A stretch of 62,653 nt of DNA, counting the filler, from Collodictyon triciliatum (Eukaryota), in assembly GCA_043381765.1 (NCBI GenBank). It is 13 parts of 12 records of this genome, joined end to end, with 100 filler letters (N's around TTAATTAATTAA, not from the genome) between each part and the next. Parts side by side here need not be neighbours in the genome. Positions count along the whole stretch, not along the records: positions 36,664 to 41,783 come from JBHJMP010005463.1; 12 more parts are not named here. One strand, 5' to 3'. The notes under the pieces were generated by a model. The model saw only the letters and a list, made by a program, of their open reading frames with translations. It did not search any database and was not told the origin of the DNA. Position numbers and translations under genes: made by a program. Positions 35,926 to 42,033 of this stretch are shown in pieces (position 1 is the stretch's first letter; each line of letters begins with the position of its first letter).

Positions 35926-36451
35926 GAATAAAGACCGGAGCATCTCTCTCCACCCTTTTTCCAGAGATGGATTCATTTTCATGACGTCACTAAATTACCG
36001 ATTCAGCCACAACAACCACACTGTGGTTTCGATGTCGATTTCCCTTATGCGTCCCCGCAACAACCACAACTGGTATAAACTAGGCCTGTGAATTTTCCCA
36101 TTCCCGTCGCGAGTCGCACTTGGTCATGCGCGGCCTAATTCAAAGGCACAATAGCCTCGTAACACGTTGGAAGCACCAATCACGCCGCTGGACATACCTG
36201 TCTCAAAGGGGCTTTGACAAGAACCAGTCACAAGGCTGCCTCTATCAGACGCAGAGTTCTCTCCGTCGAGAAAGCGAAGCAGATAACGACGCAAAAGAAA
36301 TACCACTACGAACCGCAACTTGAGCATATTTTCTTCTTTTCCTTTCTCTACCTTGTGTCTAACAGCACGACTAATCCTGTGTTTTGTTTTGTTTTGTTTT
36401 GTTTTGTTTTGTTTTGTTTTGTTTTGTTTTGTTTTGTTTTGTTTTGTTTTG

Positions 36452-36482
<31 letters not shown>

Positions 36483-36663
36483 TTTATGTTTTGTTATGTT
36501 TTGTTATGTTTTGTTATGTTTTGTTATGTTTTGTTATGTTTTGTTATGTTTTGTATTGTATTANNNNNNNNNNNNNNNNNNNNNNNNNNNNNNNNNNNNN
36601 NNNNNNNTTAATTAATTAANNNNNNNNNNNNNNNNNNNNNNNNNNNNNNNNNNNNNNNNNNNN

Positions 36664-36757
<94 letters not shown>

Positions 36758-37073
36758 GGAAACAAAAAAATGACGTATCGAGCTCAAGCCGTCAACCCAC
36801 GGGTAGCAAGATAATAATGATTATAGTGCTCGGAATTAGTTTCTCAGAGTCACTCCGGTTTTTTTATTTTTTATTTTTCCTTTTCTCATTCCCTTTGCGA
36901 ATCACGGGTGCACTTGCTGGTCACTTATAAAAAACTTTGTGTATTTGTTTGCCACAATGTGCACATTTTGAAAGTCTCGGTAGATGCTTAATTTTACCTG
37001 AAATGATATTATGCAGGTGTTATATATATTTAAACTGACTAATTGACTAAAGTTTTATTAAATTAAAAAATAA

Positions 37074-39038
37074 GTAGTTTCCGAAAGGAAAAAGTAAAAC
37101 AAAGACTTTCAGGTGAAGAAGAGAAAGCGCCTTGAGTTTGAGAATCTAAAGTCTGTAAAACCAGACTATTGAAATGTGAAAACATCTCTGAAGTCGATTG
37201 TAAAGAATGCAAATGACTATGACAAAATCGACGATACGGCTTTATTGTGTCATAATTTGGTTACCGACACTTATCTGTTTCCAAGGTGTTACATATTGAA
37301 ATCCCAAATCCCAAAAATCGATGAAAAGTTTTTTGTACGCTTTAAAGACAATCAGAGTAGTTTCACAAGATAGACTCGCAATATTTTTAAAAAAACCAGG
37401 TTTGAGAGAAGACATGATGACTTTTTATCTCAATGATTTTCGATTCTTTTTGTCCCAAGAAAAACGCATTCCGTTGGTTGGACTGTCTCATGTATCACCG
37501 TACTTGGTGAAGCAAATGTTAACATCTTATCATAATAACATTAAGGAACATTTTGTTAAGAGGTTACTGCGCTTTATAAATCAAACAGTCCCTAAAGATG
37601 AGAATATTACATAAGCTATTAAAAAAAGCAGAGTTACGAAAATTAAAAAAGGCCATCTTCAAGAAACTCAAAATACCAGAACAATATAAAGAGTGGGCTT
37701 GAATGCTTTTGCATCGTATCATTCCCAGCCACATTGTAAAAGCTATCGAATATGACGCCAAATTCAATCCAAATAAGTACACTCCATGTCTGATTTACAT
37801 GAGTCGCATTTTTGAGGACATTGAACACAAACTGTTTCAACGAATCCCTATAAGAACTGCCAATATACCATGTTATATTTCTCTAAATACCGCATGTCTG
37901 ATAGATATGTTAGTATCAACTGGAAAACATTATTACTGAAGAATATATCATGATGCAAAGATACCTATGGGATAATTTCTATGCAATAAAGAGAGAGTCT
38001 TTCATCAAAGAGACTACATTTTTAAATACATGATACAAACAGACGGCTAGGCGGTGTCATTATTGTTTGAAAAGAAAGGTATTTCAAATTCAAATCCAAT
38101 TTAATCAAAAAATCCAAGATTATGTTTATATGGATGAACTTTCCGAAGAGCAGCTATCTTTATTAGAGACGAAAAATACAGCTGGAGTGGATGCAGGCAA
38201 GTTTAATTTGGTTTCCATGGTGGATGAGACAGGTAAGAAATTACGTTACACGATACACCAAAGAAGACGTGATAGTAAATCTCTTAAAAATCACAAAATA
38301 CTCTTGCGCGAGAAAAAAGAAAAGTACAATGCTTCAGGGATATGCATGGCAACAGATTTACAAAGTGCTATTTCTTTTGGTCCCTTGACTTTTGAAGAGA
38401 ATCAGCGGTTTGGGTTATTAAGAATATCTTTAATCGATTTAGAGACAAAACTGAGTAAATATAATTCATGCACCGTCGATTATGAAAAATTTCGAAAATG
38501 TATATCTATGAAATCAAGAAACCAGATAGAATTATCCAGATTTTATGAACAAGTAACTTTTCGAAAGATGATATGGAGACAGTATGTTAATACAAAAAGA
38601 AGTGAAGAATTGTTTATGGACCGAATCGAAATGACTTTTGGGCAATGATGTTATACTGGCGTATGGAGACTGGAGCAGAAAATGTCCGATGAAACATTTT
38701 ACGCCAACAATCGGAAGAGGATTACGAAAAATACTATTCAAAAGTTTTGAAACCGTATTGTAAATGAATTTAGAACCTCCAAGATATGATGCATCTGCGA
38801 AAAAGAACTAGAATACATGAAACCGAAGGGAAATTCAAAAAAGGTGTATGGATGTCTCATATGTAAAGAATAAAATCGCTTAGAAAGCAATCAAGGCGCA
38901 TTTTCGACAATGGACTTTAACAGCGCTAAAAATATACTCAAGAAAGTTCTTTTAATCCTTCAAAATATGCATATATCTCCTCTAAAATATATCGTCGGGC
39001 CTCTCCTGGCAGCCATCACCACTACACAACCTTTGTGA
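37074..39038 (+). pseudogene. Fanzor1 (eukaryotic TnpB-like RNA-guided RuvC nuclease), inactivated by stops and frameshifts
   Basis: Reconstruction gives VKTSLKSIVKN...TYLF, MLTSYHNNIKEHF, IQTDG (38033-47) and RuvC-I GVDAG (D at 38190). It continues with ETKLSKYNS..VDYEKF, FRKMIWRQY, LAYGDWS (38656-76) and PTIGRGLRK. RuvC-II NEFRTSK (E at 38766), a decayed zinc ribbon (*CIC...CKE*) and RuvC-III MDFNSAKNI (D at 38913) follow. No obvious spliceosomal intron is required. Confidence 0.9.
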
Positions 39039-39196
39039 AAAAAGTAGTGAGACCTTTGATGCTAGCGCACCAGGTTTACCAATCTTTCTATCGGTATACC
39101 TCTCTTAGTCTATACTATAAAAAACAAGACTGATTAGTTTGTCAGTTACCGATTCAGGTTACAAAATTGATGGCTTTTTTTTTTCAAATGGTTCGG
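39011..39196 (+). ncRNA. Candidate Fanzor omegaRNA scaffold
   Basis: Overlaps the Fanzor 3' end. Nested complementarities are AGCCATCA/TGATGGCT, CACTAC/GTAGTG, ATCGGTA/TACCGAT and ACTGA/TCAGT. Confidence 0.6.
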
Positions 39197-40300
39197 AAAG
39201 CCTTATTAAAACAAAAATAAAGAGAAAGGCGTGCGCAAGAATTTCTTTTCGAGTCAAGCCTGTGCTTCATACAAATATTCTCATATTTAAATTGTTGCTT
39301 GTCAATCAAGAATGTAATTCCCACAAAGAAAATGAATCACATCCAGATATTGAGCGCTAAGGATATCATTAGTTCACACTGCCACAGAAATGGATGCTCC
39401 CTTCACATTTCAACAGGCCGCTGGTTGCGTGCGATTGGATGCATTCTCACTGGCCAAAGCAAATGGGTTGTTTTGATTGCTGGTGAATAATATGTTTGTG
39501 CATTTCGCCGACAAGACAATCAAACGACGATTTTCGTCCAGAGCTTTTCGCCAGAAAGAGCAGCACAAGCCTAAAAGACTGAAACGGCAATTATTTCCAC
39601 AATTTCATTCGAATCGCTTTCTTGTTTCATACTGTCTCATAGAAATTCAGAGTACATTATTATGATAGTATATGTAATTTTGTGCTAATTATGTTTATTA
39701 ATTTAAAACAGGAACTCACATTTTTAAAAAATTATGTAATTATAATATAATTTCCACATACATATGAATGTTCCAGATACGTTTCAAGCGAACATCCAAA
39801 TTTGGCGCAGGAACATTCGCTTAATAAGTTCCTCTTTCGGAAAACTGAAAGAGAAAAAACAAACAAAGGAGGGCGGAGAATGCGTTGTGTGCTTTTGGTT
39901 GTGGGAATCGCAGGAAGGATTGGGAATCTCGCAGCGCAAGCAGAGCGATATGTTGTGCATTGGGAATGTCGCGACGTTGCAAGCGCCAGGCAAAGAGTCA
40001 AGTCCAACAGAGCAGGAAGGAATGCCTTTTTTTCTTTTCAGCTGCGCAAAGTTGAATGCCTTTCGTCTCTTCTGTTGCGGTAGACGGCACAAAACCTTCC
40101 TGCGCCTGGGTTTGTTCAATTGCTTTGCCTCGAGACTGCATGAATACGGAGCCCGTCAAAATCACATCACATCTGACTCGCTTATAGAAGAAAAATATAT
40201 TATTGGGGAGTGATGTGACAGAGAACTACTCGGCGGTTTGGGCGAGTGACCCACGGAAAGCTTATCATGAAGCTACCTGGCACGCTTTCAAAGATTATCC

Positions 40301-41741
40301 ATGACTGACTCTTTCCACGATTTTCCCAGAAAGCCTAGTCTAGCACAGAGAAAATCACTTAGAAAAGAAATCACAGAAAAGCGACAATCAAAGGGAATCA
40401 AAGGCAAATCGTAAAGAAAAGTGCTGCGATGAGTTGGCCCACCATGTTTGCTCTGTCACCAATCACCATTTGGACGTGCTTCCTATTGATCTACTCCTCT
40501 CTAGGTCAACATTTATGTTTCAGATTTATGTGTTTTAATCTCCATCCTACATACATGAGCATGACCATCCATTATTGTGAACGACCAAACCAATGATTCA
40601 ATAATAATTGCATACTCAAAGACGCTGTGAGCTTAGACTGGATTCAAGCAGATTCGCAGCCCCCTGCAATCATCCATGGCTCTGTTGCATCCAACTCAAC
40701 ACACATTTACTTGTTTGGGAGGATACCGTAGCGATGCAAAGCTCTCATCTTCTAGTGTGGAATTCACAGACATGGACCTTATTTATCTTTTGAGAGATAC
40801 TAATGCAGGTTACTCACCTTCAAGAATCAAAGGAAAAAAAAAGGGAGACCCATCGCCTTATTCATCCAAAATGTTTCTCTCATATAAAAATAATCACCCA
40901 GTTTTCTCCTTTTAAAAAATTACTCAAAATAAAAGCCACATTCAGCTGGGAGTTGATTCGAGCATCCGGAGACATTCCTTCAAAAAGATACGGAGCCTGT
41001 GCAGTCCTCACTAACAACAAGTTTGTATACAATTAAATACCTACAATTACTTACACAGAGCCAATAATGATATTGAAATGAAAAAATAAACACCAGTATG
41101 AATGAATTCGATATATACTGGCGCATTAGAATGTTTCGGTTGGGAAGTACTCATACAAAATTGTTGATTAAAGGATATATCTTTACGGAGGATTCAACAA
41201 GAATGGCAAGGGAGACCTTTTTACATTCATTCTTCATCTTGGTTCGAGGTTAGCCAATATGTGCAAGATGCACGATTGAGAGTTTTACTTCTTTTTTTAT
41301 AAAAAATATTCATTATATAGTATATGGACTCGGATTTCTATCTCTGGGCCGAGCAGTTCCGTTCCATCAAATAGAATGGGCCATGCGTGCATAGCAAATG
41401 GCACTTCCATTTACATGACTTCTGGATGGCTAGAGAAGAGCTTGGCAGACGGTTCGCAGATTTCGACGGAAACGTGGAGATTCTCAACAAGTTTATACTA
41501 AATGCCATATAGACAATAATGAACACATTATGCATAAATCATCTAGTTTTTCATGAAATTTTAATAAAAAAATTGTGGCATGACACAAAAGTAACGAACG
41601 AGTGGAGTCTGATTCAGCAAAATGGGCCATCGTCATTGGGGAGATACCACTTTTCATCTTTCGTTTACAACAGCAAGTGGAGAATTATGATGGGTACAAC
41701 TGGACAAGAATTACCTCTGCAAATTTTAGATTTTGACTTCG
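40301..41741 (+). CDS. Kelch-repeat protein (3' truncated; one apparent frameshift)
   Basis: Kelch segments HIYLFG(G)Y, GDIPSKRYGACAV...IYLYGGF, PSNRMGHACIANGTSIYMTSGW and GRYHFSSFVYN. Confidence 0.8.
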
Positions 41742-42033
41742 GTAAGTTCGATGAGTGCTTCATTTCCAAATCATAAAATGAAANNNNNNNNNNNNNNNNN
41801 NNNNNNNNNNNNNNNNNNNNNNNNNNNTTAATTAATTAANNNNNNNNNNNNNNNNNNNNNNNNNNNNNNNNNNNNNNNNNNNNGCTGCTTCTTTTTTATT
41901 CTTTTTTTATTCTTTTTATTCTTTTTACTCTTTTTATTCTTTTTATTCTTTTTATTCTTTTTATTCTTTTTATTCTTTTTATTCTTTTTATTCTTTTTAT
42001 TCTTTTTATTCTTTTTATTCATTATATTTACAG

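Follow-up and report, generated by a model that had tools for sequence, protein, structure and literature searches.

A dead Fanzor1 copy and the putative relic of an omegaRNA gene in its 3' tail

What becomes of the guide RNA of a Fanzor nuclease once the gene for the nuclease has decayed? The question is raised by positions 39011-39196 of the 62,653-nt stretch of DNA analysed here (the window), where an earlier reading of the bare letters (the sequence-only reading) had placed a candidate omegaRNA, a multi-stem fold that overlaps the 3' end of a Fanzor gene. The interval lies on the strand of the nuclease and at the 3' end of its open reading frame (ORF), whose stop codon is at 39036-39038, as omegaRNA genes do. 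We lean towards the view that we are dealing with the non-coding 3' tail of a Fanzor1 copy that has died, and with the decayed site of that copy's omegaRNA gene, in whole or in its first part, because the omegaRNA gene of related nucleases starts at about the stop codon and runs to the right end of the element. The comparison with these relatives suggests that the relic of a scaffold would lie within the interval.

Homology bears out that a Fanzor gene lies upstream, as the sequence-only reading had it, and identifies this gene as a Fanzor1 on the same strand as the candidate RNA. An open stretch of 204 amino acids (aa) at 38034-38648 matches the intact 648-aa protein P0001 with an E value of 1.5e-58, and the same stretch matches 416 cluster representatives at E values up to 0.001. 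Residues 1-643 of P0001 are colinear with 37113-39029 in four tblastn pieces, which fall in frames 3, 1, 2 and 3, share 48-65% identity with the protein and show no introns. A profile built from P0001 and 13 relatives matched the solved Fanzor1 (Fz1) proteins of S. punctatus (8gkh, SpuFz1; E 4.4e-86), P. parasitica (9cf0, PpFz1; E 4.4e-82) and G. theta (9cer, GtFz1; E 1.2e-65) in the PDB, with matches that span the full length. Pfam returned only sub-threshold matches to OrfB_IS605 and TNB for the pieces of the pseudogene, and none at E values up to 0.1 for P0001. The RuvC acidic residues, which we take to belong to the motifs GVDxG, NEFRTS and RDxN, are kept in the window, where these motifs read GVDAG, NEFRTS and MDFNSA, with M in place of R before the last D.

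Because it carries eight in-frame stops and at least five frameshifts, the Fanzor1 copy is dead by the evidence of its sequence, and its frame cannot give a protein. The stops align with R, Q, R, L, D, L, C and C of P0001, both of the late ones striking zinc-finger cysteine codons, and the frameshifts include an out-of-frame block at 38635-38763. A variant genetic code was considered and ruled out, since the eight stops align with five types of residue and are accompanied by frameshifts, so that no single recoding restores the frame. The in-frame stops include those at 37170, 37612 and 37703, and several stand at R or Q of the intact relative (TGA for R twice, TAA for Q), a pattern that would fit the decay of CGA and CAA codons by C-to-T changes.

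An active copy would be expected to transcribe this 3' tail and to process the product into a scaffold to which the Fanzor protein binds, and a 3' extension with the sequence of the adjoining DNA would direct the nuclease to cut the empty site. The published work on such RNAs is taken here from portions of three papers. According to these portions, the source of Fanzor omegaRNAs is the non-coding stretch 3' of the gene, next to the right end (PMC10432273, PMC10530073), in agreement with the earlier proposal that the RNA overlaps the 3' end of the ORF and extends to the right end of the element. The omegaRNAs of Fz1 proteins are 75-150 nt long and start with a 7-bp stem-loop that is followed by more stem-loops, and the region past the first stem-loop may lack constraint (PMC11423790). 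The omegaRNA of SpuFz1 is encoded, like the candidate, directly downstream of the Fanzor1 ORF and on the same strand; its scaffold of 75 nt spans a 30-nt terminal inverted repeat, and a guide of 14-15 nt follows at once (PMC10432273). The scaffold proposed for the window is twice as long, and terminal inverted repeats sought between 36760 and 39800 yielded none that was convincing, the comparison with SpuFz1 being one of descriptions rather than of sequences. The omegaRNA of GtFz1 from Guillardia theta is about 150 nt long, with several stem-loops and an overlap of 17 codons with the end of the ORF (PMC10432273, PMC11423790), whereas the candidate overlaps the last nine codons and has four or five helices.

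What the 3' end of a Fanzor1 gene looks like when the gene is intact can be seen among metagenomic relatives. A scan of metagenome contigs yielded 363 loci that encode relatives of the nuclease, of which 80 were kept (L001-L080); the contigs of P0001 and of P0153, which are closer relatives, are not among the 80. The stop codon is present in 76 of the 80, with intact ORFs of 601-699 aa, and the 74 that have at least 150 nt of 3' flank were used as the conservation set. Nucleotide similarity among these 74, as seen by BLAST, crosses the stop codon and mostly stops 85-110 nt past it, and in L001-L004 the 3' element ends 45-46 nt past the stop. The alignment holds 63 distinct sequences, the 11 that were dropped being eight duplicates after trimming, L052 (which lacks the end motif), L020 (a 179-nt version) and L078 (which did not match the start pattern used). 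The element is compact (70-106 nt), begins at the stop codon with a hairpin at or over it, followed by a long-range helix around a third hairpin, and reaches its end 45-85 nt past the stop. In all 63 sequences it ends with an invariant GGTGT followed by AA, beyond which the flanks differ; the sequence becomes variable 2-3 nt past the last helix.

The long-range helix of the relatives is 93.2% paired, as compared with 44.5-63.6% when the partners are slid, and it holds 58 double-change cells, as compared with 2-25 when slid; none of 500 shuffles matched its observed pairing, its double-change cells or its covariation score. Single relatives fold into the same three helices, with z scores of -4.58 for L002 and -6.77 for L008. 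The element looks as expected of a Fanzor1 omegaRNA gene in the portions of the literature used here (PMC10432273, PMC10530073, PMC11423790), and it is probably the omegaRNA gene of these relatives. Scans of viral contigs with P0001 and the 204-aa piece of the window, and of genome contigs with the 204-aa piece, found no relative. One of the relatives, L002, has a 346-aa DDE_3 transposase with a helix-turn-helix domain (L002:1638-2678, minus strand) head to head with its Fanzor ORF, and in many of the others the 250 nt upstream of the Fanzor start codon are conserved as well.

One alternative to a decayed gene is that a near-intact scaffold of 165-186 nt occupies 39011-39196, closed by an 8-bp stem and followed by a guide from about 39197, and that it is used in trans by intact Fanzor copies. 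We consider this quite improbable, although each of the stems named in the sequence-only reading was found at its place by inspection. The segment 39011-39175 has a z score of -3.39 on the plus strand, with one of 200 shuffles folding as well, and it is the lowest of 217 sliding 165-nt windows laid over 36780-39372 of that strand (z -3.7). Perfect 8-bp stems bound 74 other segments in the 62-kb window, and 39011-39175 folds better than all of them (their z scores have a mean of -0.80, a standard deviation of 1.11 and a minimum of -2.95). The length of such a scaffold was counted as fitting the 75-150 nt given for Fz1 omegaRNAs in the consulted part of PMC11423790, and stand-alone copies of omegaRNAs that lack an ORF are known from S. 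punctatus and C. reinhardtii, as described in portions of PMC10432273 and PMC10530073.

The low score hangs on the closing stem and on the choice of frame. When the closing stem is left out, the z scores are -1.39 for 39015-39160, -1.10 for 39015-39080 and -0.92 for 39085-39160; the slightly longer segment 39005-39200 reaches only -1.23 on the plus strand (24 of 200 shuffles as good) and -1.86 on the minus strand; and the sliding windows 12 nt off 39011-39175 have z scores of -1.0 and -0.6. The minimum-free-energy structure (MFE) of 39011-39175 keeps the closing stem and the ACUGA hairpin and leaves CACTAC/GTAGTG and ATCGGTA/TACCGAT unused, so that two of the four named stems lie outside it, and the fold as originally drawn, when enforced, is 2.3 kcal/mol above the MFE. 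The hairpin CACTAC/GTAGTG, which has an 18-nt loop, appears in the MFE of 39015-39080 and is absent from that of 39011-39175. On the minus strand, 39011-39175 has a z score of -3.02, again with one of 200 shuffles as good. Comparison with shuffles thus favours the proposed fold in the frame 39011-39175, and speaks against it in the other frames (z -0.9 to -1.4) and as a property of one strand. There is a modest excess of structure, most of it due to a single GC-rich closing stem and no larger on the plus strand than on the minus strand, and the fold as drawn is largely this one strong stem around helices of chance quality.

The first hairpin of the candidate has 6 bp rather than the 7 bp of published Fz1 RNAs and is missing from the MFE of the full segment, and a helix that closes the RNA from end to end is not among the features described for Fz1 RNAs in section 5 of PMC11423790. 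A guide that starts at about 39197 would be separated from the last helix by 21 unpaired nt that include a run of ten Ts, as compared with the 2-3 nt seen in the 63 relatives, and this part of the sequence-only reading is not supported. Its claim that the multi-stem fold of 165-186 nt is the scaffold likewise lacks support, because the MFE omits two of the four stems, the minus strand folds about as well and the score depends on the frame. At the other end of the pseudogene, the 165-nt windows that start at 37044, 37056 and 37128 (37044-37292, around the start codon at 37113) have z scores of about -3.4, a value that the candidate region goes below only in its best frame.

Other copies of the family allow the preservation of the 3' end to be compared with that of the ORF. 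Four metagenome runs hold short contigs that are identical or 99% alike to parts of the assembly piece carrying the Fanzor1 copy, and the same four runs hold contigs that are 80-90% alike over 36921-39084, which by their sequence derive from other copies of this Fanzor family; none of the contigs from the four runs covers 39109-39302. Among the 18 sequencing runs listed as sharing words with this DNA, none has half of the words and none is of RNA. Among the contig pieces listed, to which all of these divergence figures refer, the one that covers 38994-39084 (the last 45 nt of the ORF and 46 nt past the stop) differs at 15 of 91 positions, or 16.5%, and the 18 that cover the ORF and the 5' leader differ by 5.6-15.7%. 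On this comparison the 3' end has been kept no better than the ORF, and the claim that the fold had been preserved better than the reading frame is not supported; the 16.5% lies above the value for every listed ORF piece and argues against a near-intact scaffold.

Two changes within the named stems are listed in the other copy: 39046 A>G, after which a U-G pair can still form, and ATTAGTA in place of the arm ATCGGTA, found in the clipped letters past 39084, the partner arm lying beyond the letters compared. The second of these counts against a near-intact scaffold as well. By eye, the clipped letters continue the likeness to about 70 nt past the stop, that is to about 39108. At the frameshift sites 38640 and 38755, the contigs of other copies lack one base and carry an extra one, respectively; these one-base differences hint that less damaged copies of the family may exist, as would be needed for use in trans. 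Protein queries made from the open frames 39121-39357 and 38930-39130, intended to catch translated pieces of other copies, found no match.

Returning to the decayed omegaRNA gene, the window resembles the metagenomic loci in belonging to the same protein clade, in having its candidate RNA at the stop codon on the same strand and in having a hairpin over or beside the stop, and it differs from them in matching neither the sequence nor the models of an element that has a strong covarying fold and an invariant GGTGT end. Several observations weigh against our preferred reading. A covariance model of the 63 sequences (R1) found its best match in the window, of 9.8 bits and E value 1.4, at 37150-37180 in the 5' end of the ORF, and in the candidate interval reached only 5.5 bits (E 9.6) on the plus strand and 5.8 bits (E 8.6) on the minus strand. 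A second model (R2), of the L001-L004 type, had no plus-strand match in 39000-39200 at E values up to 10, and its best match elsewhere had an E value of 2. With the relatives' element as query, nhmmer gave a best E value of 4, outside the interval, and blastn found no similarity to it in the window. All sub-segments of the interval fall short of the element's fold (z -0.9 to -1.4, as compared with -4.6 to -6.8), and the minus strand folds as well as the plus strand. Within the relatives' own helix, the number of pairs with any double change is not in excess (4, as compared with 3.6 in shuffles, 317 of 500 of which do as well). Finally, the proteins of the relatives are 38-47% identical to P0001, a protein that shares no more than 48-65% identity with the window, and a 3' architecture that comes from such distant loci may fail to carry over. 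The failed matches lower the case for an omegaRNA gene without refuting it, because the relatives are distant and an omegaRNA may be unconstrained past its first stem-loop. The best match to R1, which is not significant, falls in the region of low z scores near the Fanzor start codon.

A further explanation is that the interval holds no sequence derived from an omegaRNA at all and that the stems are chance pairings in an AT-rich 3' flank or in some other repeat. An 8-mer stem occurs in 24% of 242 contig windows of the same size and in 26% of 2000 dinucleotide shuffles. Of these 242 control windows, 45% have five or more non-homopolymer stems with a length of 6 bp or above; four or more stems of 7 bp or above are seen in 5.8%, and two of the four in the candidate are pairings of an A tract with a T tract; each of the stems, taken singly, is at chance level for an AT-rich stretch of 186 nt. 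Counts of stems at the control level, the lack of similarity to the relatives' element by sequence or by model, and a fold that is not specific to one strand all agree with this explanation, as does Rfam, which over 36000-42000 and at E values up to 1 gave only two sub-threshold matches, both outside the interval. Even so, we hold it to be unlikely. In position and strand the interval agrees exactly with Fanzor omegaRNA genes as given in portions of PMC10432273 and PMC10530073, another copy remains alike for about 70 nt past the stop, and of the 75 stem-bounded segments the framed one folds best.

It is also possible that the relic is confined to about 39015-39079 and consists of the stop-codon hairpin, a GACCU/AGGUU helix and the end AGGTTTAC, with the old guide from about 39080 and nothing of an omegaRNA in 39080-39196. 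The end AGGTTTAC lies 41 nt past the stop, close to the 45-46 nt in L001-L004, the nearest relatives with DNA to compare, and contains a one-mismatch version of the motif that is invariant in the relatives. The pattern GGT[GT]TA occurs at 0.35 per kb on the plus strand of the window and twice in the piece 36664-41783, and GGTGT is invariant in the 63 relatives. The MFE of 39015-39080 has two adjacent hairpins, the first of them over the stop codon as in the relatives. The match to the motif was spotted post hoc, however, and the model R2, which was built from L001-L004, has no plus-strand match there. The segment folds weakly, at -12.7 kcal/mol and z -1.10, with 27 of 200 shuffles doing no worse; the other copy, read by eye, still resembles the window after 39084, so that the repeat unit seems longer, unless the Fanzor unit is nested in a larger repeat. 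A scaffold of this short form is, in our judgement, more doubtful than a chance origin of the stems, though less so than a near-intact scaffold.

Two further observations concern the interval. A local direct repeat, AACCTTTGTGA (39028-39038) and GACCTTTGATG (39051-39061), is alike at eight of 11 positions, and each of its copies can pair with AGGTT at 39072-39076. A rule of spacing was also tried, by which the RD motif, 210-226 nt before the right end in the relatives, would put the end of the window's element at about 39120-39136; nothing notable stands there, and the rule was dropped as too loose.

Whether the decayed site could still be of use to the family is a separate matter. The strongest form of the earlier proposal is that the dead Fanzor1 copy would still supply a working omegaRNA, with a guide from its own flank, to intact copies elsewhere, and we regard this as very improbable indeed. 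If it were true, dead loci would keep directing cleavage at their own empty sites. There is precedent for an omegaRNA that outlives its own nuclease in the ORF-less 'ghost loci' of S. punctatus (described in part of PMC10432273) and in 20 extra fRNA copies in C. reinhardtii (part of PMC10530073). The ORF-less loci are described there as highly conserved among themselves, whereas the one listed piece of other copies across the 3' end of the ORF differs from the window by 16.5%. A real and active RNA here would be a further natural Fanzor1 scaffold and an example of a guide RNA that outlives the gene for its nuclease, which is already known in outline from omegaRNA loci without an ORF. At present the locus is a decayed, transposon-borne nuclease gene with a putative RNA relic, which is of value for annotation and would not surprise specialists. 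A firmer result obtained along the way is the 3' element of many metagenomic Fanzor1 loci, which is compact, covaries and ends in GGTGTAA. The coordinates of the features are collected in Table 1.

Table 1. Features of the Fanzor1 locus, of its relatives and of the window.
Feature	Position	Strand	Remarks
Fanzor1 pseudogene, intron-less	37113-39038	+	tblastn with P0001; profile match to SpuFz1 (8gkh)
Stop codon TGA of the Fanzor frame	39036-39038	+	in loop of first hairpin
Closing stem, 5' arm AGCCATCA	39011-39018	+	8 bp; within last ORF codons
Closing stem, 3' arm TGATGGCT	39168-39175	+	8 bp
Hairpin CACTAC (39020-39025)/GTAGTG (39044-39049)	39020-39049	+	6 bp
Imperfect hairpin GACCU...AGGUU	39051-39076	+	inner UGC/GCA pairing
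Stem ATCGGTA (39090-39096)/TACCGAT (39147-39153)	39090-39153	+	7 bp; encloses ACTGA (39129-39133)/TCAGT (39142-39146)
T10 tract	39176-39185	+	directly 3' of closing stem
AGGTTTAC, resembling the relatives' terminal AGGTGTAA	39072-39079	+	rival position of right end; 34-41 nt after stop
Stretch alike in another copy (metagenome contigs)	38958-39108	+	38994-39084 aligned; clipped 36 and 24 letters similar by eye
Relatives' 3' element, examples	L008:4826-4911; L002:4881-4951
Assembly piece with Fanzor1 copy and candidate RNA	36664-41783		5120 nt
Linkers	2720, 7944, 13164, 18387, 23610, 26123, 31344, 36564, 41784, 47002, 52220, 57438		100 nt each; N44-TTAATTAATTAA-N44

Linkers join assembly pieces of about 5.1 kb into the chain that makes up the window, and pieces that are adjacent in it need not be adjacent in the genome. 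A search of the window by tblastn with P0001 and by blastn with 38900-39400 found the locus itself and no second copy, and a tRNA scan found no tRNA. Long ORFs are absent from the window, and microsatellites are abundant overall and stand at the ends of many of the pieces. Downstream of the Fanzor relic, three open stretches on the plus strand at 40794-41776 have weak matches to Kelch or beta-propeller families, all of them under the Pfam thresholds, and are probably exons of a host gene. Taken with the lack of long ORFs and the microsatellites, these Kelch-like exon fragments make the source of the DNA look eukaryotic.

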